Source of the DNA: a virus
Lineage: Duplodnaviria; Caudoviricetes
Virus record (IMG/VR): IMGVR_UViG_3300046382_000011
Location: 1-39,271 of that record
Reading direction: 5' to 3' (one strand)
Length of the DNA stretch: 39,271 nucleotides
Below the pieces are notes generated by a model, which saw only the letters and a program-made list of their open reading frames with translations, was not told where the DNA came from and ran no database searches. Shown in pieces: positions 6,821-35,439 of this stretch; the first letter of the stretch is position 1, and the number at the start of each line of letters is the position of its first letter. The translations under genes were made by a program, and so were the position numbers.

Positions 6821-7050
6821 ACGAGACAGTGGGTGAGCGCATCCGCCGTCTCCGTAAGGAGACTGGACTGTCCGCTGATGCCGTAGGCGAGCGCATCCGC
6901 ATGAGCGGGACTTACGTGCTCGATGTCGAACGCAACAGCCACGCGCCGGGTTTCTTCATGGCGATTGAGTTATCGAAACTGTTCGGCGTGAGTCTCGACT
7001 ACCTGGCCGGCCTGACCGAACACCAGAATAACCCTTACGTGAAACGATGA
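6817..7050 (+). CDS. XRE-family HTH regulator
   Basis: GERIRRLRKETGLS...VERNSHAPG...LSKLFGVSLDYLAG. Confidence 0.88.
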   Translation: MNETVGERIRRLRKETGLSADAVGERIRMSGTYVLDVERNSHAPGFFMAIELSKLFGVSLDYLAGLTEHQNNPYVKR

Positions 7051-7799
7051 TCCACTATCACGGTTTGCCTATCACGCCTGACGAAGCCGCTATGCCCGTC
7101 GTACTGGCGGGGCACGTCTTCGTATCGTTCCGCCACCCCGGCCAGTTAGGGATGGCGCTTGAATACGCTTCGTCTTTCGCGCTGGATAACGGGGCTTTCT
7201 CCGCATGGATGAGCGGAAGTCCGGTAACCGATTGGGAACCGTACTATTCGTGGGTACAGGAACTGCACCGCTATCCGGGATTTGACTTTGCGTGCATCCC
7301 TGACGTGATCGACGGTGATGAAGCCGCCAACGATGAACTGATTAACCAGTGGCCTTGGCAGGAGAAGCGGTACATCGGGGCACCCGTGTGGCATATGCAC
7401 GAAAGCCTCGGGCGTTTGCAGCGTCTCGCGCTGAAATGGCCCCGCGTGTGCATCGGCAGTTCTGGCGAGTATGCGAAGGTGGGCGACGAAAAGTGGTACA
7501 TGCGCATGATGGAAGCGATGCAGGTAGTGTGCGACCGCGACGGGCGCCCCACGTGCAAGTTGCACGGTCTGCGTATGTTGAACCCGGATGTCTTCACGCG
7601 GTTTCCGTTCGCCAGCGCGGACAGCACGAACATTGGACGCAATATCGGGATCGACAAGGCATGGAAGGGTACTTATCGCCCTGCCACCAAGTCGGCTCGC
7701 GCGCGCGTGATGCGCGACAGGATCGAGTTTCACAATTCACCAACTTTTTTCAATCCGGAAGACCTTTACGAAAAGGTTCCGGGTCTGGAGTTCGTATGA
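7047..7799 (+). CDS. TGT/DpdA-like base-exchange transglycosylase
   Basis: TGT-barrel motifs in order: LDNGAFS, PDVI, PVWH, CIGSS, LHGL, ADST. Confidence 0.65.
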   Translation: MIHYHGLPITPDEAAMPVVLAGHVFVSFRHPGQLGMALEYASSFALDNGAFSAWMSGSPVTDWEPYYSWVQELHRYPGFDFACIPDVIDGDEAANDELINQWPWQEKRYIGAPVWHMHESLGRLQRLALKWPRVCIGSSGEYAKVGDEKWYMRMMEAMQVVCDRDGRPTCKLHGLRMLNPDVFTRFPFASADSTNIGRNIGIDKAWKGTYRPATKSARARVMRDRIEFHNSPTFFNPEDLYEKVPGLEFV

Positions 7800-13917: not shown

Positions 13918-15261
13918 CTAGTAAGAAAGACCTACCCCGTACCCTAAACGCTGAAGATCCGGAAGTTGTTTCTTCAAACGGCCTGCACCGATGTCCGTTC
14001 TGTAGAAAGGGCTGTTGGGAATCTTCACCTTCTTTATTGCGCTGTACGCACTGCGACGCGCACCCGTTATCGTATCTCCTGTACCTGTGGCAATCAGAAC
14101 GTAGTCCCCTGCGGTCACAGGCCCCGGAAGATCCACCACCTTCCCGTTAATCTCGCGCGGCGTGTCGCCAATCATGACTTCCGAGAAGTGAAGATGCTCC
14201 ATATCTTCCGCATTGTAAATTGGAATCCCGCACAGATCTTTATTCGTTACTTTCGAGTAGGGAAAGTCGGGGAGCGCCATCAGGACGGAGATGGAGACTA
14301 CATCGGTCTTCACCTTCAGCGTGTCGCGCCCGTTCACCAGATCGAGCATCCATTGGGCCTGATCGCCTTCGATCAACGCGGTAAGGTTGTGGCGGATCGG
14401 CCAGCCGTCGCGCATCGTCCACTCCAACGGATAGGGGGTTCCATCGTGCGTTATCATGCAGTTCACATCAACGTAGCCGATGTACCCCACGCGATGGAGA
14501 TGATCTGTAGCCGGCTTGAGTACCTGGTCAGCCAGTTTCGACTTCTTCACGACGCGCACAGTAGTGCCCATCTCGCCCGTATTCACGCCGAGATCGCCGT
14601 TCATCAGTTTCTTATTCTCCCAGTTCTCAACCCATCCTGCTTCGGACCATCCAGCAGGCCCGAACCACCCGCCCACGGCCATCTCCATCCCGTCAATCTT
14701 CTCCTGGAGAATAAATCCGTCTTCTTTGGCCGATTTGACGTATTTAGGGACTGTTTTCCAGCGCTGAAGCATGTAGACCAGATCCGCCGCCGAGTTCGCA
14801 ACATAGGACATTGCCCGCTCGCCGTCACCGGACGGCTTGGAGACAAACGCTTTACCCTGCTTTTTTACGTAGGCGATAGCTGAGTCGTAGTCGTGGAACG
14901 TCTTGCCATCGATGCACGGCATGCCGCAATCTTCCATGACCTTCTGGCCTATCTCGCGGTCGAGCTCCCATTCAACGGCATCCAGATTGCAACCGAAGAT
15001 GGGGTACCCGATACGCCGGAAGGGTTCCAGCAGGTCGAGATAGTGCGTGTTGTCAGGCGTGTAGATGAGATCCGCCCATCCGATCCACTTCTTGCGAAGC
15101 TCGTTGAAATCGCGGATCTTTGTGACGAACCCTTCACCCGCGTGGCTGTCCGTGCCGTCAGGACGCGGTTTGTCGTACCAACGTACCTCATGTCCTTGCA
15201 TCTGCCAGCGCATGCACAGGTCAAGCGCGTTCGAACCGACATCGATTACTAGTATTTTCAT
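13918..15261 (-). CDS. PurD (GAR synthetase)-like ATP-grasp ligase
   Basis: ELDREIGQKVM, FVSKPSG, ILQEKIDGMEM, ENKKLMNGDLGVNTGEMG (cf. PurD DHKR..DGD.GPNTGGMG), LEWTMRDGWP (cf. LEFN.RFGDP), FYRTDIG. Confidence 0.8.
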   Translation of the reverse strand: MKILVIDVGSNALDLCMRWQMQGHEVRWYDKPRPDGTDSHAGEGFVTKIRDFNELRKKWIGWADLIYTPDNTHYLDLLEPFRRIGYPIFGCNLDAVEWELDREIGQKVMEDCGMPCIDGKTFHDYDSAIAYVKKQGKAFVSKPSGDGERAMSYVANSAADLVYMLQRWKTVPKYVKSAKEDGFILQEKIDGMEMAVGGWFGPAGWSEAGWVENWENKKLMNGDLGVNTGEMGTTVRVVKKSKLADQVLKPATDHLHRVGYIGYVDVNCMITHDGTPYPLEWTMRDGWPIRHNLTALIEGDQAQWMLDLVNGRDTLKVKTDVVSISVLMALPDFPYSKVTNKDLCGIPIYNAEDMEHLHFSEVMIGDTPREINGKVVDLPGPVTAGDYVLIATGTGDTITGARRSAYSAIKKVKIPNSPFYRTDIGAGRLKKQLPDLQRLGYGVGLSY

Positions 15262-19773: not shown

Positions 19774-20055
19774 TTACTCCTTATCGATGTCCGGGTCCGC
19801 TATCGCTTCCGAGTGAATGCAGAGCCAGGTGATGTCTGTTAGTGCCTGAATCCGGTGCTTCTTTCCGGCCTTGATTTCCAGCATGCACGGCGCGTGGTGA
19901 ACTTCCATTTCGCCGTCCACTTCCACCAGTGCGGAGCCCGCGCCGAGATAGCTCAGGTGGTCGTAGTCGTGGGCGTGCTTTTCGACTTCCTGCCCCGCTG
20001 CCAGTGTCTGTTCGCGCGCGTACACACCGCCGGCTGAGAAGTGGTGCTTTATCAT
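19774..20055 (-). CDS. Cupin-domain protein
   Basis: HHFSAGGVYARE, KHAHDYDH, IKAGKKHRI, WLCIH. Confidence 0.8.
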   Translation of the reverse strand: MIKHHFSAGGVYAREQTLAAGQEVEKHAHDYDHLSYLGAGSALVEVDGEMEVHHAPCMLEIKAGKKHRIQALTDITWLCIHSEAIADPDIDKE

Positions 20056-20615
20056 CGCTCGCACCGCAGGCAGATAATCAGCGTGATCCGGTCGTCCGGC
20101 CCGTCGTTCACGACTTCGTGTTCTTTCAGGTTATCGAAGTACCAGACTTCGCCCGGCGCCATCGATACCCGCTCGTCTTCCACGCGGTTCACGCATTGCG
20201 GATTCGACTGCAAAACCACGTATAGCTTGGTATTGTAGTACTTCGCGTGCCAGCCGTCGTCCGCGTGGGGTTCTATCCTGCCTCCCGGCGGGATGCGGGT
20301 AATCATCACACCGCCAATCCGCACCGCGCGCACCCGGTGTGCGAGATCGAACACGATCTGGTGGAGGGATGGCAGCGCGAACCATTCCGGGTAGAACTTC
20401 GCGTCGTGTTCGTCATTGAACTTCGAATAGTCGCCCGATTCCTTGAACGGCTTTTCATCGTTGTACCGCAACCAGATATCATCCATTGCCGCGTGCGGAG
20501 TCTCCGGCGCGGTCTTCCTGACCGTATGCCGGTTCCACAGTTTCGGCTGGCGCGCAATCTCCAGAAGCATCGGCGCCGTGTCGATTCCTGCTGCGATTTT
20601 TACAAGATTCCTCAT
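20052..20615 (-). CDS. Aspartyl/asparaginyl beta-hydroxylase-family 2OG-Fe(II) oxygenase
   Basis: PGGRIEPHAD (HxD), GEVWYFDNLKEHEVVN (distal His), DRITL (2OG-binding Arg). Confidence 0.85.
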   Translation of the reverse strand: MRNLVKIAAGIDTAPMLLEIARQPKLWNRHTVRKTAPETPHAAMDDIWLRYNDEKPFKESGDYSKFNDEHDAKFYPEWFALPSLHQIVFDLAHRVRAVRIGGVMITRIPPGGRIEPHADDGWHAKYYNTKLYVVLQSNPQCVNRVEDERVSMAPGEVWYFDNLKEHEVVNDGPDDRITLIICLRCER

Positions 20616-22780: not shown

Positions 22781-24403
22781 TTACCCCGCGTTCAGTAATC
22801 CCGTGTCCTGGTATTCGGCGTAGAACGTGCCGATTGACAGCGCAGAAGCGCTGGTCGCCAGAACATCGATTGCCATTTTCTGGAAATTCAACGGCGCCTT
22901 CCACGCGAGCGTGTACACGTGTGGCACCTTCGTGTTGCTGGTCCACAACGCGCCGCCCCATGAGAAAGCGCCCCATATCGTCTGCTGCGCCTGCGTCATG
23001 ATGAACGTCGAGCCGAGCGTGTTGCCCTGATCGTCCACCGCCGTGATGTTGTAGTTCACCGCCGCGCCGGAAGCCGACAGCTCAAGCGTCGATTGCACTA
23101 CCTGCAACTGGCGCATGTGATTCGTCTTCGGGAATGTGGACGACTTCAGGTGACTCGTCAGGTTCGTTCCCGCGTCGTTGTACACATCGTTCAGACCGGG
23201 GATGCTGTCGCTCTTGAACAGCGCCGCCCCGTGGTCGGCTCCCGACAGGATGAAGTAATTCCCGACTTGCGAAGCGCAATCGTAGGTGAACGTGTGCGGC
23301 CCCGTCCACCGCAGGCGTCGAATGTCGTACCAGTAGTCGTTTGTCTGCGCGATGCCCTGAATCACTGTCGGGATGCATATCCGGTAGATGTTCCCGGAAT
23401 AAGAGGCTGCGATCCGGGAAGGAGTCGTCGCGTTCTGGAACGGGACTTGCACGTCCGACATACCGCCCTGCCCCGGCGTTTTAGACAGGGGGCCTACCGT
23501 CCCCGCGTAACTGGCCACGTAAGGCCCGTCTACGCCTGCAAAGATGATCCCGAAAGGCGAGGGGACGATACTACGCGGCGCGACGCTACCCGTGGTCAGC
23601 GTGATGTAATTCAACGACAGGTTATTCGTGGCGGGATCGCCCGATACCTGCCAGATCTGCGAGATCTTGAACACTGCCAGTGCGCCGAGCACGCCCGAAG
23701 ACGTAGTAGTCAGCGGCAGGCCGGACAACGCGGTAATCAGCGTCGTGTCGCCTATCGTCAGATCCTGAGAGGCGTTCGTGCGCACAGTCGGCGCGAGCAC
23801 ATCACTCAGCGCCAGATGGTTGCTGTTGTAGGCGAAGTACGCGCGGTTGTTGTAGTTCGCAACAGCCGTAGGGACTTTGCCCATCGGGTTTGTGGTCAGA
23901 TCGGTAGAACTCCAGGCCGGTGCCGCCGGGTTCGTGATGTCGATCACGCCGAAGAAGTTCGTACCTGTCCCGCTAAACCCCGGATGCGTCACGAGAATCT
24001 TCGTGCTGACGACAGCCATTGTCGGCGGCGTCCACGCGCCCGACGTGGCGGGGGAGGCCGGCACGTTGCCCGCTACCACGCCTGAGATTGTTACGAACGT
24101 GTTCGTCAGGCTGTTATAGGCGAACGGTTCATCGAAACCGGGATTGCGCGCGGTCGATACCATTCCGTAAATCATCGTTCCGATAGACACCTGCACGGAC
24201 ACGAATGTCGGTGCCGTGAAGCTGCCAAACGTCGTCAGCGCTGCGCCCACGCCGGGGCGTGAGACAACAATTTCCGGGTTGCCCTGATCGAAAATGAGAT
24301 TGCTTAGCGCTTGACACGCGCCGGGGAAAGCGTCCGTTGCGTCGAATGCATCGCACAAACCTTTCGGCGTAAAACGCATCGGGTACCCATTGCGAATTCC
24401 CAC
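22781..24403 (-). CDS. Tail nozzle/stabilisation protein (P22 gp10 / T7 gp12-like position)
   Basis: 540 aa, beta-rich, directly after the adaptor. Confidence 0.6.
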   Translation of the reverse strand: MGIRNGYPMRFTPKGLCDAFDATDAFPGACQALSNLIFDQGNPEIVVSRPGVGAALTTFGSFTAPTFVSVQVSIGTMIYGMVSTARNPGFDEPFAYNSLTNTFVTISGVVAGNVPASPATSGAWTPPTMAVVSTKILVTHPGFSGTGTNFFGVIDITNPAAPAWSSTDLTTNPMGKVPTAVANYNNRAYFAYNSNHLALSDVLAPTVRTNASQDLTIGDTTLITALSGLPLTTTSSGVLGALAVFKISQIWQVSGDPATNNLSLNYITLTTGSVAPRSIVPSPFGIIFAGVDGPYVASYAGTVGPLSKTPGQGGMSDVQVPFQNATTPSRIAASYSGNIYRICIPTVIQGIAQTNDYWYDIRRLRWTGPHTFTYDCASQVGNYFILSGADHGAALFKSDSIPGLNDVYNDAGTNLTSHLKSSTFPKTNHMRQLQVVQSTLELSASGAAVNYNITAVDDQGNTLGSTFIMTQAQQTIWGAFSWGGALWTSNTKVPHVYTLAWKAPLNFQKMAIDVLATSASALSIGTFYAEYQDTGLLNAG

Positions 24404-26008: not shown

Positions 26009-27430
26009 TTACGGGGTGGTCACGGTACCGGCAGTATAACCCGGCGTGAAGGCGGAACCGGCTTCCACACGTGCGAGGAATGCCTGATTCAGGATGATCG
26101 AACCGTAGAACACTTTCCATGATACGACGCGCGTCTGGTTGAGCGGATCGCTCTTGTCAGCGCCCGTCAGGTAGTGGAACTCGGGGTTTTCGAGCAACAC
26201 CTGGCCGTACGAGTGGTTGCCGATGAAGATGGTCGGGAACACGCTCACGCCCGTGGCGGGAGCCGCCGGCGGCGTTTGCGCGACGCCAATACCCGTCAGC
26301 GTAACCGTCTGGTTCGGCAGAAGCTGCGTAGCCTGACCCGCCAGCGGACCGGTGACGGGAACACCGTTACCGATTGCCGTTGCCAGATTCGACGGCGTGG
26401 CCGACGTACCGATATACACGTTGAACACGTAGTTCGGCACGTTCGGGATCACGACCGAGATCGAACCCGTGGGGCCCGTGACGCTGATGGCGTTCGAAAC
26501 CTGATAGATGATCTGTTCGACCGACGTTTGCGCGGGCGAAGCCGTCACGATGATCTGGTAGCCGGCATTCGTTGCCAGCGTGCCGCCCGACGCCGATGCC
26601 GTACCCTGGATGGCGGCTGCTCCCGTCCAGTAGGGCATCATGTTCGATTCAACGAAGCGTGCGCCGTTGAAGGGCCCGAGTTCGTTGTTGTACAGACGGT
26701 TCACATCGCTGTACGACCACGCGTTCACCACCGTCGTGTTCTCGCGCATGTCCTGCGCCGACAGCGGATGGATGAGCGCGATGTAGTGTTGCATGACCGC
26801 TGGCGACTTCGACGGATCGCGATACGCGCCCGCTTCGATCATCATGTCTTCGCGTTCGTCGCCCATGAAGCGCGGGACGCCGTACGTGAGGAACGAACCG
26901 ACGATGCGGTTCGTTTCGTGCGGTGTCATCACGTCGGTTGCCAGCAGGTTCGCGCGCGACGCCTTGCCGTTCGCGTAGTTCACCTGCGTCGTGGCGAGAA
27001 GCGTGTTGAACGTATTGCGTTCCAGCGTTTCCGGCAGTTGCAGCGCGACCAGTTCGCATGCCTGCTGGAACAGCGGGTGCTTGATGGTCAGGTTGGCAAC
27101 GTCCGTGATAATAACGCGGTCGCCCCATTGCTGGGCCGTGGCCGAAACCTGTTGCAGCGTCATCGCTTCGCCGGGGGGCGCAACGCCTTCCTGCAACGGC
27201 GCGAACGGCAGCGGCAAGCGCTGGTAGCGCGAAGCCGTGTACGTCGTGCCACGGTTCGTGTCCAGCTTCAGCGGCTTGCCGAACTGGTACGCGACCAGCT
27301 GGCGGCGCGCGAGCGGTTCGACTTCTTCCTGAATGTACGCTTCAACGTCCGCCGTAAAGCTGGTGGACTGGTTGGTAATGCCCGGGAACAGCGAGGCCCA
27401 CAAGAGGCCCAATTTTTTGAGGTATCGCAT
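26009..27430 (-). CDS. Major capsid protein, N4-gp56 family (473 aa)
   Basis: PLQEGVAP, QWGDRVIITD, YIALIHP, ELGPFNGARFVESN, DKSDPLNQTRVVSWK; GAGG RBS before ATG 27430 (the ORF-track start at 27853 overlaps the scaffold). Confidence 0.9.
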   Translation of the reverse strand: MRYLKKLGLLWASLFPGITNQSTSFTADVEAYIQEEVEPLARRQLVAYQFGKPLKLDTNRGTTYTASRYQRLPLPFAPLQEGVAPPGEAMTLQQVSATAQQWGDRVIITDVANLTIKHPLFQQACELVALQLPETLERNTFNTLLATTQVNYANGKASRANLLATDVMTPHETNRIVGSFLTYGVPRFMGDEREDMMIEAGAYRDPSKSPAVMQHYIALIHPLSAQDMRENTTVVNAWSYSDVNRLYNNELGPFNGARFVESNMMPYWTGAAAIQGTASASGGTLATNAGYQIIVTASPAQTSVEQIIYQVSNAISVTGPTGSISVVIPNVPNYVFNVYIGTSATPSNLATAIGNGVPVTGPLAGQATQLLPNQTVTLTGIGVAQTPPAAPATGVSVFPTIFIGNHSYGQVLLENPEFHYLTGADKSDPLNQTRVVSWKVFYGSIILNQAFLARVEAGSAFTPGYTAGTVTTP

Positions 27431-27446
27431 GGTTTCCTCTTCGTGG

Positions 27447-28166
27447 TTAAATATTCGTGTTCGCGAGACGCTCACGACGCTTGTCCTGATCCGAGCGCCC
27501 CGAACGTGCCGGTACATCACTGCGAACTCCTGCCGACTTCCCGCGCGGCACTGCCGGTGCGGACGACTTGGGCTTTGCCTTAAGCTTGCCTTCAGCAATG
27601 TCCTTACCGAGCATCCAGTAGTACACATCCTCGCGCGAAGCCTGCTGACCGCGCTGACGTGCCTTCTGTACTTCTTCTTCCACCCGCTCCGTGTACTTCG
27701 CTCGGCGCGGTTCGCTCGCAATCTTCGACTCGAAGCGCGCACGGTCCGACATGTCTTGCGCCTGGAACATGGCCTGCTGCGCCTGGCGTTGCGTGTCGCG
27801 CAGCGTGCGGTTCGCCTGAATCTGCCAGCGTTCCATCTCCGTCGTGTCCGCACTGCGCAGGCGTTCTTCCTCGCGCTGGTACTCCGCGTCTACGGGCGCA
27901 GGCTGACTCGAAAGGCGCGCTTCCGCTGCAAGGCGGCCACGGCGTTCGACTTCAGCTTCCAGGCGAGCCAGACGCTCAGCAGAATCATCGCGGCGCGATG
28001 TGGCCCGTGCAGGAGGATCGTCAGGAAGGTCATCAGCAGGCAGATCCAGATCATCATCATCACTGGAATCAGATGCAGGAAGGTCATCAGGTAGGGGATC
28101 ATCGTCCGTTTCTCCGTCAATCCCCGGAAAAAGAAGGCCTAAGAGTTTTTTAAGCAGCTTGTTCAC
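27447..28166 (-). CDS. Capsid scaffolding protein
   Basis: Acidic N-terminal region, coiled coil, basic C-terminus; immediately upstream of the capsid gene. Confidence 0.7.
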   Translation of the reverse strand: MNKLLKKLLGLLFPGIDGETDDDPLPDDLPASDSSDDDDLDLPADDLPDDPPARATSRRDDSAERLARLEAEVERRGRLAAEARLSSQPAPVDAEYQREEERLRSADTTEMERWQIQANRTLRDTQRQAQQAMFQAQDMSDRARFESKIASEPRRAKYTERVEEEVQKARQRGQQASREDVYYWMLGKDIAEGKLKAKPKSSAPAVPRGKSAGVRSDVPARSGRSDQDKRRERLANTNI

Positions 28167-28175
28167 TTGGGTTCC

Positions 28176-28685
28176 TTACAGCAGCGTGAAGCCGCCGATG
28201 TTCTGGATAGTGGCCGTGGGCGTTGCCGCGTTGGTGATCGTAACGATAAAGTCACGCGCCGTGGCCGTCGCAATGGTCATCGTACCGCTGAGCGTCCAGC
28301 CTGCGGCGGTTGTGACCGTGACCGTTTGGCCCGTGCTATTCAGAATCCGGAGACCTACAGAAGAACCCGTCACGCCTTGCTGCGGCGTGAGAGTTGCAAG
28401 AAGGACGGCAACTGTCGGGAGGGTGAGCGCTACGCCTGCGCCCGCTGCGCCAGTAAGAGACAGGACCGTCTCCTCGGCACCCATGATCTGCGATTGCGTC
28501 GCAGTAAAGCTTGCCGTATTGGTCGCGGTATTGAACACCGTCGCCTGCCACGGGTTTTGCGACAGGATCGCGTTAATCAGACTGATCTGATCCGGCATAG
28601 AGCCGTTGTCCGCGATGACCGGAACCGCGCCCTGGATACCAGGGAACATTGTGCCGAGCATCTCGGCGGTAAGGATTTTTCGCAT
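28176..28685 (-). CDS. Putative capsid decoration/cement protein (169 aa)
   Basis: Thr/Ala-rich beta protein, LTLPT motif; head-module position. Confidence 0.55.
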   Translation of the reverse strand: MRKILTAEMLGTMFPGIQGAVPVIADNGSMPDQISLINAILSQNPWQATVFNTATNTASFTATQSQIMGAEETVLSLTGAAGAGVALTLPTVAVLLATLTPQQGVTGSSVGLRILNSTGQTVTVTTAAGWTLSGTMTIATATARDFIVTITNAATPTATIQNIGGFTLL

Positions 28686-28737: not shown

Positions 28738-30021
28738 TCAACGTACGCGCCGCGCGCGGATAAAACCGTTATTCGTTAGCGTACTCGTGGCAAATACCGC
28801 ATTGGCGACGAGAAATACAGTTGTCGCAGTTGTAAGGCTGATTCGTACGCGTGGCGTGCATTGATGCTGCGCCTGATTTGCTGCGGTAGTCACGCCCTGT
28901 ACGGCCTGAAGAGTGCCTACGGCAGCGAAAGTAGCAGAGGTCGTGCTGATACCCGTAAGCCACGCGGACATTGTTGTCGTTGCCGCCGGAAGATACTGGA
29001 CGGACCCTTCCACGTCCCAATCTCCTGCGGTTAGCGAAACACTCGTGGCGTTTTGCGGAACACCCGACGACATCGCGTTCCCGCTGTTCGTGTTCGTCGC
29101 GTACTCGCCCACGCTGCCCGCGTTCGCGTTGTTGTTCGTGGTCGTGCCGACAATACCGTTTAACTGGTCCGGCGTGAACGTGCCCGTGCTGCTTAGCGTG
29201 GTGAACGCGCCCGTGCTCGCCGCCGTGTTCCCAATAGGGCCAGGGGAGGCGAAACGCGCCGTGAAACCTGCGCCGCTAACCGCGCCGCTCGCGGCCAGTG
29301 TCGTGAAAGAACCTGTACCGGGCGTTGTCGCCCCGATATTCGTGCTGTTGATACCGCTTGAAGCGGTGAGCGTAGTGAACGCGCCCGTGGAAGGTGTCGT
29401 CGCGCCGACAGCCGTGCTGTTAATGCCGCCCGTCGCGCTGAACCCACCCGTGTGAGCCCATGCGCCCGTACCGCTGCTGGACGTGATACCGCTGATGCCG
29501 GATGCCTGGCCGCCCGTGATGTTCAGCGCGTTCACGAAACTGCCAAACGCGTCGTTGGCAAAACCGAACGCCAGAACCGTGCTTCCCCACGTGATGAACG
29601 CGTTTTTGTTGTTCGCGCTGCGGATCGAGTCGATAAACTGGACGGTCGGATTCGGGCTGTTATAAACCTGCGTACCCGTGGCGGTAACCGCCGGAATCGC
29701 GCCGCCACTTGCGAACAGGCTGGTACCCGCCACCGTGTTCGGTGTCGTGCCGCCGATTGGTGTGTTGTTGATCGTGCCGCCTGTAACCGCGACGCCTGAC
29801 ATCGTGCCGGAAGTCGCGTGCACCGCTGAGACAGTCGGGTTCGGGTAGGTTCCGGAAAGATCGCCGCCCGCCGGCCCCTGCGGCCCTGCCGCCACGATGG
29901 TGTTCAGTGCTACCGTCGTCTGCTGTGCAAGCGAGTTGATACCGGCCTGCACTTCTTCAGGCGGCACGTCGGTGCCCGCGCTGCGCACCCGGTACGGAAT
30001 AATCAGGAACTGGTCAGCCAT
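28738..30021 (-). CDS. Fibre-like virion protein with internal repeats
   Basis: GPQGPAGGDLSGTYPNPTV; four I(N)ST.IG.TTP.TG.FTTL-like repeats. Confidence 0.6.
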   Translation of the reverse strand: MADQFLIIPYRVRSAGTDVPPEEVQAGINSLAQQTTVALNTIVAAGPQGPAGGDLSGTYPNPTVSAVHATSGTMSGVAVTGGTINNTPIGGTTPNTVAGTSLFASGGAIPAVTATGTQVYNSPNPTVQFIDSIRSANNKNAFITWGSTVLAFGFANDAFGSFVNALNITGGQASGISGITSSSGTGAWAHTGGFSATGGINSTAVGATTPSTGAFTTLTASSGINSTNIGATTPGTGSFTTLAASGAVSGAGFTARFASPGPIGNTAASTGAFTTLSSTGTFTPDQLNGIVGTTTNNNANAGSVGEYATNTNSGNAMSSGVPQNATSVSLTAGDWDVEGSVQYLPAATTTMSAWLTGISTTSATFAAVGTLQAVQGVTTAANQAQHQCTPRVRISLTTATTVFLVANAVFATSTLTNNGFIRARRVR

Positions 30022-30349
30022 GAAGTGCCCTTAACCGTTTGCTTATCGACGGGCGCCCGCCGGGGCAGTGCGTCAGGAGATACGTTACAAGTCCCGGCCC
30101 GTAGCCGCATGTCTTGGCGTACTGGTCTGCCTCCAGTTCCTGCGCCTCGCACATCGCGAAGAACTTTTCCGTCTGGAAGAACGCGCGCAGCGTCACGAAC
30201 CATAGCAACCGCGTGCGCACGTGCCTGTGATGCAGGTGCCCGCGCTCATGAGCCAGTACCGCGTTCTGTTCGAACTTCGACAGGGAGTCGAACTGGCTCC
30301 CGGTCTGTATTGTGCCCCACGGCGTGACGCGTGCGCAGAAGTCTTTCAT
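30014..30349 (-). CDS. Small HExxH zinc metallopeptidase (M48/M56-like)
   Basis: AVLAHERGHL, QELEADQYA, P.ISKRL. Confidence 0.75.
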   Translation of the reverse strand: MKDFCARVTPWGTIQTGSQFDSLSKFEQNAVLAHERGHLHHRHVRTRLLWFVTLRAFFQTEKFFAMCEAQELEADQYAKTCGYGPGLVTYLLTHCPGGRPSISKRLRALHG

Positions 30350-32526
30350 CGCGGCCCCATCTGCGGGTCCTGCACCTGGTCCGGATGGACTGCTCCCGCC
30401 GGTTGCTGGGGACGCGGTACCCCCGGTTGCGCGCCAGGGCGCGGCGTTCCTGCTACCCCCGGACCCGCGCCGCCCGGTACGCCGGGTTGCCCCTGCGGCG
30501 CGCCAAGCTGTTTCTGCATCTTCTGGTTCATCGCCTGCTGATGTGCCTGAATGTGCGCGCGGAACAAGCCTTGCGGATCGCCAGTCAGCGTCGCGCCGCG
30601 CATATGCTCCGCGATGTGTCGCTGGTCGTCATCCGCCGGATGGACTTCCGCCGGCAAGCCGTTGTGCATCATCAGATTTTCATCAGACGGCTCGACGTGG
30701 AACAGGTTGCGCTCATCGATCAGGATGCGCGGGCCGACTTCCGGTCCGAAAATCTGCTCGGTTCCCATCTCCAGAATCGGGCCCACGTTCAGGCGTCTGC
30801 CGTCCAGCTGTTGTGGCGGGATGCCGCGTAGCACGTTCATCCACGCAATCATCTGCTGCATGCGCTGCATGCCCGTCTGGTATGCCGTGCCGCACCAGCG
30901 GAAGAAGTAGCGCTCGTTGAACGCCTGGACGGGAATCTCTTCCTGCTTCGCTCGCGCGCCGACTTCGCCCATCGTCACCACGGTCAGTTCCTTCGTGCGG
31001 AACTGGCGGTCCAGTTCGAACATACGTTCCAGCAGCGGATTCAGGATGCACCCTTCGTACCGCTTCGCGTGGTCGATGATGTTCGACTGCTGTTCCTGCG
31101 CCTGTGCGGCGGCCTGCGCCTGATTCTTCCGGCCCGCCGGCATCTTGCCGAGCATGGCGTCGTTCACTTCCATGCTCTCGTTGATCTGCGCCTTGATTGC
31201 CTGGCAGAGTGCGACGGCATCCTTGTAGATGGCCGGGAACTGCGCGAACTGCGTCTTCTGCGGATCGGTCAGCCACACGGCGGCGAGGCCCATCACCATT
31301 GACTGATAGTTGGGGTTAGCGAGCGGATCGGTCATCACGATAGGCAGAAGCGCGTACTGCGCGCTGTCCTGCCCCATGTTCCAGTAGTCGTTCAAGTTCC
31401 ACTGAAGGTACTTGACGGGTTCTACACGCGAAATGCCGTAGATAGTCCCCTGGATGCGCTCCACGGGGGCCGTGATGATCGGGCGCTTCTTCGACCAGAA
31501 CGGGTTACGGATGATGCCGAGAATGATTTCAGGGCCGGCGTAATAGACGAAGCAGGGCTCTTTCCCCCGGCCTTCCTCCAGCTCCAGATTCGTGTGCACT
31601 TCGTAGATCAGCGCGTACTTGTACGTGCCTTCCGTGCGCACGCCCGCGTCCGCCGTGCGTCGCTTGTTCGGAACGCGTTTCTGACGACCGCCATCCGGTT
31701 CGTTCAGGTTGTCCATGATTTCCTTCGCGTTCCAGCCGACGAAGACACCTTCATCGATGAACTGCTGGACGGATTCCTTCGACAGGCGCAGCCTTACCGC
31801 CGTAGCGGTCGCGCGCTCAATGTCGTTCACGGTTGGCGGGTAGACAGCAAGATCATCAACGGCCATCGGTGTGATGTCCGGCATCTCGTCAACAATCTCT
31901 TTCTCTTCAACGTCCCACTCTTCTTCAACGGTGATGTCTTCCGCCTCGACGCCTGCGGCTTCGTCCGTCAGGATTGGCGGTTTCTTCACGAGTTCCGTGA
32001 TGCGGCGCGTGGTCTTCATCCAGTCCACGTAAAGGCACCACTGCCCCGTCACGTCACCTGACAGCAGATCCGCGCGAACGATGTCTTTCAGGTTCGTCTT
32101 ACGAATGTAGTGTTCGAGAAGTGCGAGAGTAGGGAATGGCGTAACGCTTGCAGGTCCGACAGCGTCGACGTGCTTGTAATTGGCGGGAAATAAGGTGGCG
32201 AGAGTTCGCTTGCAACGAGCGTTGATAGCGTCTCGGACAGCCGGTATGTAGCACTGGCTGTTACCCGTATATTGCTGGTTTTCGTCGGGGCGCGCATTGT
32301 AGATGTTCCAGTATTCTTCAACCCAGTCGGACTGCTGCTGCTTGTTCTCGTAGCACTTCTGGATCTTCGGATAGAGCTTGCAGGCGTCGATATACGCATC
32401 GCTGCCCGTGTCTTCCGCGAAATTCTCCAGTTCTTCGCCCGTCTTTTCAGCGTCCAAAGCCCGTGAATCGAGGGTTTCGATTACGGGCTCATCGACCTTC
32501 TTTTCTTCTTTCTTTTTGCGCGCCAT
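30346..32526 (-). CDS. Portal protein
   Basis: 726 aa between TerL and scaffold; IYGISRVEP; helical with a Q/P-rich C-terminus. Confidence 0.8.
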   Translation of the reverse strand: MARKKKEEKKVDEPVIETLDSRALDAEKTGEELENFAEDTGSDAYIDACKLYPKIQKCYENKQQQSDWVEEYWNIYNARPDENQQYTGNSQCYIPAVRDAINARCKRTLATLFPANYKHVDAVGPASVTPFPTLALLEHYIRKTNLKDIVRADLLSGDVTGQWCLYVDWMKTTRRITELVKKPPILTDEAAGVEAEDITVEEEWDVEEKEIVDEMPDITPMAVDDLAVYPPTVNDIERATATAVRLRLSKESVQQFIDEGVFVGWNAKEIMDNLNEPDGGRQKRVPNKRRTADAGVRTEGTYKYALIYEVHTNLELEEGRGKEPCFVYYAGPEIILGIIRNPFWSKKRPIITAPVERIQGTIYGISRVEPVKYLQWNLNDYWNMGQDSAQYALLPIVMTDPLANPNYQSMVMGLAAVWLTDPQKTQFAQFPAIYKDAVALCQAIKAQINESMEVNDAMLGKMPAGRKNQAQAAAQAQEQQSNIIDHAKRYEGCILNPLLERMFELDRQFRTKELTVVTMGEVGARAKQEEIPVQAFNERYFFRWCGTAYQTGMQRMQQMIAWMNVLRGIPPQQLDGRRLNVGPILEMGTEQIFGPEVGPRILIDERNLFHVEPSDENLMMHNGLPAEVHPADDDQRHIAEHMRGATLTGDPQGLFRAHIQAHQQAMNQKMQKQLGAPQGQPGVPGGAGPGVAGTPRPGAQPGVPRPQQPAGAVHPDQVQDPQMGPR

Positions 32527-33435: not shown

Positions 33436-35439
33436 TTACCTCCGGGGTAACGATGTGAAATAGGTTGCACCCTGCGGATTAGTAGCAGAAGACAGGTCTT
33501 CCGGCAAGGTGTTTTGTCGCGATGTTAGCACAAATACTGCCGACTCCAGCCCCTCCAGCAACGTGCGATGCGCGCCTCGCTCAGGCTCCGCCGCGAGTTG
33601 CCCTGTCTTGCTGACCGGATAACAGTAACCCCCCGCGAGGGCGTTCAACGCCTGCCGCGCGTTGCTGTCAACCAGCAACAGGCGCTTGCCCTTCATCTCC
33701 GTGCGGATCATGGGCGACAGCGCGCCGCGCGCCATGCTCGGGTAGGCTCCGCGCATCGGGTTCATCTTCGCCGTCCGCAGGGCGGTCATCAGCGGCATGC
33801 GGTCCGCCTGGTCTGCCACATCACCCGGTATCCACGCAGTAAGGCGCGACCTTGGAAAGGCAGCCCGTACAAGTTGGACAATATCCGGCACTCCCGCTGC
33901 TGGAGCCATTGGCGAAACCCAATCGGTAATGACGACCAGTCGCTCACCTTCCACACTAACGAGGACAGCCGTAGTCTCTGATCCACTAGCATTAAAACAA
34001 AGCGCCAGCGCATCACGTTGAGTCGGTTCGTAGCCATCCACAATATTCCACTGCCCGAAGTCTTCATAGACCGGTACTCCTGAGAACACACGCTGCGCAT
34101 ACGCCAGCGCGTTGAGAATGTCGCGTTTGCCCGAAGGAAAGTTGAGTATCTCCGCGACCAGTTGCGCGTGCTGCCCGCGCCCACCCACCAGCACCACGTC
34201 CCCGGCTTCGAAGAACGGTTGCAGGCCCATGATGAAACTTTCCTTGCTCCGATCCTGTGGAGCCATCACCGCCTTGAGCGGCAGGCTCACCCCGCGCCGC
34301 AACATCTCCGCGCGCATTGGCTGAAGCAACCACTCGTCCAGGGAGTTCTTTTCAATCGCCACATTCGCATCATCAAACCGGCGCGACGTGTCAAACGCAT
34401 CCGCGATTATCTGGTCCGGCTTCCAGTACTCGCCGGAACTCGCGTGCACGTAGATTCTTGTGCCAAGCCGTGATAAGACAACCCTGCCAGTACGATCAGA
34501 ACTAGTGACGCTGGCAGTACGAGCCGGGTCCACCACCAGTGTTTTGGGTAGCCATGGGGCAGGGTCGAGTGCAATTTCACGGATATGCTCACTTTCGAAA
34601 GGTTTATCCTGACTGCCGATCGCCATCAGCATCAGTTCCTGAAGAAACCCGCGCAGCTGCCCGGCCTTCTCGTACCGGTCGCGTTCCTTCCGGATCCACT
34701 CCATCGGGAAGCGTTCCGGCCAGAGTGCCTCGGTTGCCGGGTCATCGATATCCCCGTTGCAGATCGGAAAGCGTAACGTCGTCCACTGGTCGTCCGCACG
34801 CAGCCGCGACACAAGGCAGTCTTCCGCCAATGGTGTCTGCGTTACCCGTACCTTGCGCTTCTCCTTGTCCATCGCGGGGATCAGTTGCAGGTAGAGCTTC
34901 CTCAAGGTGGCGTCCACTGCCGCCTTGTCCTTCACCATCGTCTCGTTCTCGATGTCGTCCAGGTACGCGCGGTCCGGGCGCCAGTCGTGCCACTTGAAGC
35001 CCCGCAGTTCTTCCTCCCACCCGTGCGCCTCCAGCAGCACACCGTTCGGAAGCTCGAACTGGTGCTCGTTCCACAGGCGCCCGCGATGCCCGGTCAGCTT
35101 CCCGAAGAGCGTGAGCAACTTCATGTTCTTCGCGGCTTCGTTCTTTATCGCCTCAAGTCTTTGACAAGCTTTTGTGTACGTCTCGCCGATGATGAGGCAG
35201 TAGTTGAAGTTGGCGAAACACGCCTCCATCAGCAGATGCTCTTCCGACAGGGTGGACTTCGCCGCGCTCCGGAATGCTTCGATCAGCACCAGTTCGTCAG
35301 CACTGCGCCACGCGTCCATGATCTGTACGTGGAACGGGGGGCTGGCCTGCGGATGCCGGTGCGGGAACAGCATGGCACTCGCCAGTGCCCGGTCTTCCGA
35401 GATTACCCTGAGCGTGGCAGCGCTTGTGAGTCCTGTCAT
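33436..35439 (-). CDS. terL: Terminase large subunit with C-terminal extension
   Basis: Walker A FRSAAKST, LRG, RPDRAYLDDIE (Walker B), TPLAEDCL, LWPERF, VVDPA, EILNFPSGKRDILNAL. Confidence 0.9.
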   Translation of the reverse strand: MTGLTSAATLRVISEDRALASAMLFPHRHPQASPPFHVQIMDAWRSADELVLIEAFRSAAKSTLSEEHLLMEACFANFNYCLIIGETYTKACQRLEAIKNEAAKNMKLLTLFGKLTGHRGRLWNEHQFELPNGVLLEAHGWEEELRGFKWHDWRPDRAYLDDIENETMVKDKAAVDATLRKLYLQLIPAMDKEKRKVRVTQTPLAEDCLVSRLRADDQWTTLRFPICNGDIDDPATEALWPERFPMEWIRKERDRYEKAGQLRGFLQELMLMAIGSQDKPFESEHIREIALDPAPWLPKTLVVDPARTASVTSSDRTGRVVLSRLGTRIYVHASSGEYWKPDQIIADAFDTSRRFDDANVAIEKNSLDEWLLQPMRAEMLRRGVSLPLKAVMAPQDRSKESFIMGLQPFFEAGDVVLVGGRGQHAQLVAEILNFPSGKRDILNALAYAQRVFSGVPVYEDFGQWNIVDGYEPTQRDALALCFNASGSETTAVLVSVEGERLVVITDWVSPMAPAAGVPDIVQLVRAAFPRSRLTAWIPGDVADQADRMPLMTALRTAKMNPMRGAYPSMARGALSPMIRTEMKGKRLLLVDSNARQALNALAGGYCYPVSKTGQLAAEPERGAHRTLLEGLESAVFVLTSRQNTLPEDLSSATNPQGATYFTSLPRR

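Follow-up and report, generated by a model that had tools for sequence, protein, structure and literature searches.

Introduction

Cleavage, whether the protease comes from the phage or the host, is common, as stated in a passage of PMC6893505, and the described system closest to the one reported here is that of staphylococcal phage 80alpha. In the part of PMC5744158 that deals with it, the protease Prp cuts 13 and 14 residues off the capsid and scaffold proteins; the scaffold leader is essential while its cleavage is dispensable, the authors suggest a shared-chaperone role, and the leader motif is noted on other non-homologous virion proteins too. Prp (MEROPS C108), a cysteine protease of the host, normally acts on ribosomal protein L27, and its site is LQFF/A (passage on Prp in PMC9261936). 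Here we describe a leader system of this general kind in the IMG/VR virus record IMGVR_UViG_3300046382_000011 (Duplodnaviria; Caudoviricetes), of which we analyzed positions 1 to 39,271, referred to as the window. It is a phage genome of 39.3 kb, complete and bounded by direct terminal repeats. Three adjacent genes of its minus strand, which code for the major capsid, a scaffold-like and a predicted capsid spike or decoration protein, share a short N-terminal leader ending in (L/M)FPG-I. Comparison with related loci suggests that this leader is probably recognized, and cut at Gly/Ile, by a 111-amino-acid (aa) M48-type peptidase of the phage itself.

The window resembles 80alpha in that a short common N-terminal leader with a hydrophobic end is carried by unrelated head proteins, with lengths of 15-17 residues here and 13-14 residues there (same part of PMC5744158). 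It differs in the motif, which is (L/M)FPG/I rather than LQ(F/L)F/A, and in the enzyme, a candidate phage zinc peptidase rather than a host cysteine protease (passage on Prp in PMC9261936). A preliminary description of the sequence had drawn the analogy with 80alpha, which holds for function and position but not for the enzyme: Prp (PF04327) is absent from the complete window genome, in a scan whose control was positive in 3 of 14 genomes. Judged by sequence and analogy, the leader system appears to function like Prp processing but is no member of it, failing on motif and enzyme. In phage Cp-1, a phage-associated protease (clan CR) also removes an N-terminal extension from the capsid; unlike in the window, this enzyme is a cysteine protease of the Prp clan, the extension has ~40 residues, and capsid alone is mentioned in the passage concerned (PMC9261936).

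The candidate enzyme of the window shares the HExxH + ExxAD zinc site and the catalytic-domain fold of the M48 family (Ste24p/ZMPSTE24, HtpX, BepA), but it has 111 aa, lacks the membrane barrel and accessory domains, and is encoded by a phage within its head module. Like the genes of canonical prohead proteases, its gene lies between those for the portal and the scaffold and capsid proteins, and a role in head processing is presumed for it; unlike those enzymes it is of the zinc type, and the S78 prohead protease (PF04586) is absent from the window genome (control positive in 4 of 14 genomes). The HK97/T4-type S78 enzymes and their relatives, and the ClpP-like S49 enzymes, are serine proteases of other folds, which act within the prohead to break down scaffold or delta domains. 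Archaeal abylysin (4jiu) and selecase (4qhf) are of similar size (105-109 aa) and have a gluzincin core, but they match the window peptidase less well in structure (Z 4.8 and 4.6) than ZMPSTE24 does, and both are cellular and not tied to virion genes. To our knowledge, the known phage head-maturation proteases are serine or cysteine enzymes. A search of titles and abstracts, mostly outside subscription journals, retrieved no M48 or HExxH head-maturation protease, no part for M48 peptidases in building virions and no description of this leader.

Three adjacent head proteins begin with a common leader

The preliminary description had reported that three consecutive head proteins share a leader of 15-17 residues, with FPG-I at nearly the same distance from the start, and that composition changes abruptly behind the motif of the scaffold. 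These observations were confirmed. The three proteins start at 27430, 28166 (GTG) and 28685 on the minus strand, and their leaders, all of the basic-hydrophobic type, have 17 residues in the capsid, 15 in the scaffold-like and 16 in the spike-like protein; FPG begins at residues 15, 13 and 14, respectively. Aspartate or glutamate make up 17 of the 40 residues that follow the scaffold motif. The chance that three neighbouring genes all have FPGI among their first 30 residues, estimated post hoc from composition and thus a rough guide only, is ~4e-10. Elsewhere among the 49 listed genes, FPG is found only in a tail gene (residue 26) and in one early open reading frame (ORF; residue 34), and a similar leader precedes neither. 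In the tail protein (22781-24403, minus strand), which lacks the basic-hydrophobic leader, relatives show similar residues, and its FPG is probably structural.

The FPG motif is spelled with different synonymous codons in the capsid, scaffold and spike genes, which argues for a signal at the protein level and rules out a DNA repeat as its source. Type I signal peptides are marked by Ala-x-Ala at -3/-1, type II signal peptides by the lipobox Cys, and type IV prepilins by G/F followed by a hydrophobic helix; the leaders of the window have instead Phe at position -3, no Cys, and polar or acidic residues behind the site.

To follow the motif through homologues we used the 80 nearest IMG/VR loci, where only proteins with a called start were scored. 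The strict pattern FPG[IV] is present in 71/78 capsids, 65/74 scaffolds and 15/68 spike proteins, and a looser leader pattern in 76/78, 71/74 and 66/68, respectively. Conservation thus extends to the leader pattern and not to an invariant FPG, which distant members replace by LTLG/V, FTRG/V and others. Leader ends vary by lineage as LFPG/V, LTLG/V, FTRG/V and LKAQ/L, and FPG is only the version of the motif that belongs to the window lineage. Some relatives, for instance loci L195 and L221, have the spike gene without the leader, and several phages of the Leu type tag up to five head-region genes. That some gene families occur both tagged and untagged implies that the tag is portable. Locus L190, inside the Leu group, carries FPR/V, FPQ/V and WPR/V in its three genes.

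The third protein was assigned from its predicted structure. The 169-aa model, with a predicted local distance difference test (pLDDT) score of 86, has the capsid spike of phage Pa223 as its best structural match (Foldseek E 4e-4; Z 9.1 and root-mean-square deviation, rmsd, 3.0 over 95 residues), and tailspike-type domains match it almost equally, within 1 Z unit of the Pa223 spike. Its identification as a decoration or spike protein is reasonable but not certain.

The leader is predicted to be cut between Gly and Ile

When the capsid was searched against representatives at 50% identity, many alignments began at query residue 19, equivalent to residue 3 of the homologue itself. Leaderless capsids begin M/ATN or M/AVN, at the residue matching I18 of the window capsid, and in sister-clade loci (capsids 51-63% identical) the capsid starts are leaderless, most of them with ribosome-binding sites, while most scaffolds begin at the acidic tract. 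Since leaderless homologues begin at the residue after Gly, that residue is the equivalent of the natural N-terminus, and G/I is the likely cut.

Across 62 distinct capsid N-termini, P4 is mostly L, M or F; at P2 there is P (35) or L (24), while 55 have G at P1 and 55 have V at P1'. The length of the leader varies widely while its C-terminal residues stay fixed; a 32-residue (96-nucleotide) in-frame insertion inside the capsid leader keeps LFPG/V in loci L009-L012 and L016 (L009:3464-3630). Firmicute-type members of the same capsid family (P0272, P0287, P0291) show a Prp-like motif at the matching position. Yet other leaders, two of them ending AGG/AD, are found on the distant N4-gp56 capsids P0169, P0174, P0184, P0213, P0218 and P0295, and leaders seem, from these sequences, to arise repeatedly at the N-terminus of N4-gp56 capsids.

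A miniature M48-type zinc peptidase is encoded in the head module

The 111-aa protein scores 28 bits against PF01435 (Peptidase_M48; cut-off 20.3), in a match covering residues 24-55 only. Residues H34, E35, H38, E71, D75, P100 and R105, among them those of HExxH and ExxAD, do not vary across 22 sequences that are 26-59% identical to the window protein. The model of the protein (pLDDT 94.5) matches the catalytic domain of ZMPSTE24 with Z 10.3 and rmsd 2.1 over 103/111 residues, ahead of Ste24p (Z 7.8), BlaR1 (Z 6.3) and BepA. A Foldseek search with this model gave no match at E <= 0.001, though the same proteins ranked first, and a sequence search of solved structures returned only Ste24p, at E 0.2. 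The Atlas assigns the protein to an M48 cluster of 51 members, most of them viral, and this may be its own cluster. Sequence and model together point to an M48-type zinc peptidase with intact motifs.

The gene occupies the slot between portal and scaffold, and lies directly before the scaffold gene in loci L320, L322, L324 and L327. Profile scans of two sets of window ORFs, of 40 and 16, revealed no other protease families, and tblastn with two peptidase queries gave no match in 50,697 phage records, hence no cultured phage with the peptidase among them.

Leader and peptidase occur together in N4-gp56 phages

The co-occurrence of the leader with the HExxH peptidase, put forward in the preliminary description as a check, was borne out. 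First, among 247 portal-to-capsid loci (redundant), leader and peptidase are both present in 188, neither in 56, a different extension without peptidase in 3, and the peptidase alone in none; after dereplication at 90% (n = 61) these counts become 18, 40, 3 and 0, with L083 counted as 'neither' on the basis of its true start, and with part of the set having been gathered with peptidase queries, a bias toward peptidase-positive loci. Second, the peptidase is found in 53/53 of the nearest loci that include the portal gene. Third, searches of whole records found it in 10/10 leader-type records, 0/20 leaderless ones and 0/4 with other extensions (L081, L088, L395, L420).

Other kinds of extension are also seen in this family. 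Those at L081:7905-8000, L088:7944-8003 and the L238 capsid start are unrelated to the leader, and the upstream context of L081 is the same as in leaderless L082, which suggests a separate gain in L081. Leaders restricted to the scaffold, several of them ending (F/Y)xAP(E/Q/N)-like or HSP/E, occur in L133, L135, L137, L139, L160, L163, L168 and L230-L232, where capsids are leaderless and no M48 gene is present; perhaps this is a different tag, read by a host enzyme.

A second case is found on P22-coat-like capsids

A miniature M48 gene and a capsid extension recur in the P22-coat-like family, namely, in loci L344, L363/L364, L365 and L379. The first three of these were found by peptidase-led searches. 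Their capsids belong to phrog_283 (and to PF11651 for L344 and L365), their extensions have ~35-60 residues, ending ..ALG/VN in L344 and L363, and their mini-M48 gene either immediately precedes the scaffold gene or precedes that of the terminase. Of the 80 loci fetched with the L365 capsid, 77 were scorable: 2 have extension and peptidase, 2 the extension alone (L395, L420), and 73 neither (54 with the portal in view). Of three cultured relatives, two lack a leader, and the third, Rhizobium phage P106B, carries an extension of 20 residues with Ala-Tyr-Ala at its end; no peptidase was seen in the fetched stretches of the three. Extensions ending VAA/A or AYA/S are those of L395:7842-9152, L420:7842-9152 and L370:4935-6152, with phage P106B among these.

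With regard to possible membrane anchoring by transmembrane helices or lipid, the window peptidase has only a short aromatic-rich helix (residues 43-58), and the second-lineage peptidases have a hydrophobic N-terminal helix. A metagenome scan with second-lineage peptidases returned 13 loci, of which one is a new short mini-M48 contig (L457), three resemble known loci in size and match (L458-L460) and nine are cellular-looking, mostly BlaR1/M56-like; no new capsid lineage was found among the 13.

Genome setting

The late genes of the window all lie on the minus strand, in the order terminase, portal, 111-aa HExxH protein, 427-aa fibre-like protein, 169-aa protein, scaffold-like protein and major capsid protein of the N4-gp56 family (Table 1). 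The scaffold-like protein had no family matches in the profile scans of window ORFs, and its position and composition suggest that it is the scaffold. Close relatives of the capsid carry the source names Burkholderia, Paraburkholderia and Rhodanobacter, and some are prophage-like (Burkholderia, Paraburkholderia). Among cultured phages there is no close member, the best of 31 matching records being only 27.5% identical, and the capsid family is widespread, with 2106 relatives among 7995 scored candidates.

Table 1. Head-region features of the window.
Feature	Position	Strand	Basis or remark
Terminase	33436-35439	-	late region
Portal protein	30346..32526	-	phrog_1216 and phrog_332; stop overlaps peptidase start
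Minimal M48-type zinc peptidase, 111 aa, candidate leader peptidase	30014..30349	-	PF01435, invariant residues, model
Peptidase HExxH (H34-E35-x-x-H38)	30236-30250	-	zinc-site motif
Peptidase E71	30137-30139	-	third ligand
Peptidase D75	30125-30127	-	
Fibre-like protein, 427 aa	28738..30021	-	without leader; phrog_11393, E 2.6e-12; between peptidase and spike genes
Predicted capsid spike/decoration protein, 169 aa	28176..28685	-	structure match to phage Pa223 capsid spike
Spike/decoration-like leader, 16 residues	28638..28685	-	ends MFPG; start at 28685
Scaffold-like protein, 239 aa	27447..28166	-	GTG start; acidic tract, then charged region; named by position and composition
Scaffold leader, 15 residues	28122..28166	-	ends LFPG; predicted cut G15/I16
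Major capsid protein, N4-gp56 family, 473 aa	26009..27430	-	TIGR04387, E 2.5e-40, over cut-off; phrog_1357
Capsid leader, 17 residues	27380..27430	-	ends LFPG; predicted cut G17/I18

Other genes of the window were noted in passing. A PurD-like ATP-grasp ligase gene at the end of the late region (13918-15261, minus strand; TIGR00877, E 1e-31, under cut-off) is present in 32/37 related phage records irrespective of the leader, and appears on this distribution to be a conserved gene of the phage family. Adjoining genes for a cupin and an Asp/Asn beta-hydroxylase-like protein (19774-20615, minus strand) follow the holin and endolysin genes, the hydroxylase being found in 8/37 related records. Beside the DNA polymerase gene, the gene at 7047-7799 (plus strand) matches phrog_887 (queuine tRNA-ribosyltransferase-like; E 6.5e-72) and has a possible function in DNA modification.

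Proposed mechanism and its alternatives

The preliminary description had offered leader-directed maturation in several forms, of which cleavage near G/I with a link to the HExxH peptidase gains from the comparative evidence, and recognition by the ATP-grasp ligase or hydroxylase loses by their distribution. In the mechanism we consider probable, precursors of capsid, scaffold and spike would be recognized by a hydrophobic-x-P/L-G/V or I site behind an amphipathic helix; the phage M48 peptidase would cut before Ile or Val, and cutting would release the mature proteins. By analogy with 80alpha, the tag would most likely serve folding or the timing of assembly before its removal, and the peptidase may act partly as the chaperone of the tag. 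Because both the inner scaffold and the predicted outer spike are tagged, the targets of the enzyme are probably free subunits or early intermediates, and its action would not be confined to a closed prohead. We infer the pairing of enzyme and substrates from the fact that tag and peptidase occur together and that, within a genome, several genes change their motif jointly.

Several observations weigh against this pairing, in addition to the bias of the locus set given above. First, the leader-bearing N4-gp56 phages form one clade (Shimodaira-Hasegawa-like approximate likelihood ratio test, SH-aLRT, 96 in a quick tree of 57 rows), so that the 18 lineages with leader and peptidase amount to one event. 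Second, the agreement at P2 between capsid and scaffold, which favours the pairing (57/59 loci; shuffle mean 26.4, maximum 39), is inflated both by kinship and by a scaffold site-finder restricted to P, L, R, I or A at this position; on well-supported branches only 3 independent pairs bear on co-change of the motif, all concordant, with p 0.25. Third, the peptidase and capsid trees each require 6 changes at P2, motif types being grouped no better by the former, and peptidase sequences change quickly (mostly 47-61% identical in loci with capsids 83-95% identical), so that no specific signal of co-evolution between enzyme and motif is established. An extreme is L225 (capsid start 4712; peptidase 1478-1879), with a capsid 84% and a peptidase 34% identical to those of the window, where the peptidase is an outlier in the tree and the scaffold motif deviates too; a replacement of the peptidase is possible there. 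Fourth, extensions occur without a peptidase in L081 (whose record is only 57% complete), L088 and L238 of the N4-gp56 family, and without an M48 gene in the P22-coat-like L395, L420 and L370, and the scaffolds of L365 and L379 have no evident leader. Finally, where the usual M48 'HP' motif has His, relatives mostly have Tyr and the window peptidase has Arg.

The leaders might instead remain uncut and, as amphipathic helices, keep head assembly at the inner membrane or engage a common assembly partner, with the peptidase serving as a chaperone or having another substrate. Amphipathicity is indeed seen in the capsid and scaffold leaders (hydrophobic moments of 0.57 and 0.61; net charge +3), a low-confidence model shows the spike leader as a helix, and a hydrophobic N-terminal helix is present in the second-lineage peptidases; in 80alpha, too, it is the scaffold leader that is essential and not its cleavage (same part of PMC5744158). 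We nevertheless consider this reading improbable, for leaders of variable length keep a fixed C-terminal end, as expected of a cleavage site, the catalytic residues of the peptidase are invariant, and leaderless homologues start at the boundary.

Somewhat less credit still is given to removal of the leaders by a host protease, with the phage peptidase merely a linked gene. The peptidase is never seen without the leader, either in the 61 representatives or in the 73 leaderless P22-coat-like loci, and the motif variant shifts between phage lineages in several genes together. Moreover, the phyla reported for Prp in a passage of PMC9261936 are few and exclude the Proteobacteria, to which the names of the close relatives (Burkholderia, Paraburkholderia, Rhodanobacter) point. 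What such a protease has in its favour is the precedent of 80alpha, the Prp-like motif of the Firmicute-type capsids P0272, P0287 and P0291, and the extensions that occur without an M48 gene.

A modification of the kind known from ribosomally synthesized and post-translationally modified peptides (RiPPs), directed by the leaders and carried out by the phage ATP-grasp ligase or hydroxylase, is very improbable: both are encoded in the late region, but the ligase is present in 17/20 leaderless and 15/16 leader-bearing records and the hydroxylase in 0/20 and 8/16, and we rejected them as partners of the leader, whose presence theirs does not follow. Just as remote is a form of the refuting possibility raised in the preliminary description (true starts downstream of the motif), namely that the leaders are mis-called and initiation occurs at the residue following Gly, for although GTG is somewhat enriched at the P1' codon (33/62 distinct capsid N-termini; 33/55 Val codons versus 37.5% in gene bodies), a ribosome-binding motif precedes P1' in 0/62, the P1' codon is other than ATG, GTG or TTG in 28/62 and reads ATT, ATT and ATC in the window, and the leaders are conserved as protein with differing codons.

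Returning to cleavage by the phage peptidase, it is tempting to speculate about a portable 'tag plus private peptidase' module, a broader idea that we hold to be possible but rather doubtful. Any virion gene could then gain a short amphipathic tag, by which its protein would be held back, at the membrane or bound to the mini-M48, until the enzyme frees it for assembly; the M48 version would be present on at least two unrelated capsid families, and its peptidase would be the first M48-type virion maturation enzyme and among the smallest working M48 enzymes.

If true, a zinc M48 enzyme would bring a further catalytic class into head maturation. What shared leaders are for, a question that 80alpha poses as well, becomes testable in Escherichia coli with four small phage genes that are free of an essential host protease. 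The 111-aa enzyme, in turn, would offer the catalytic core of ZMPSTE24/HtpX in minimal form, together with a predicted motif of its natural substrates.

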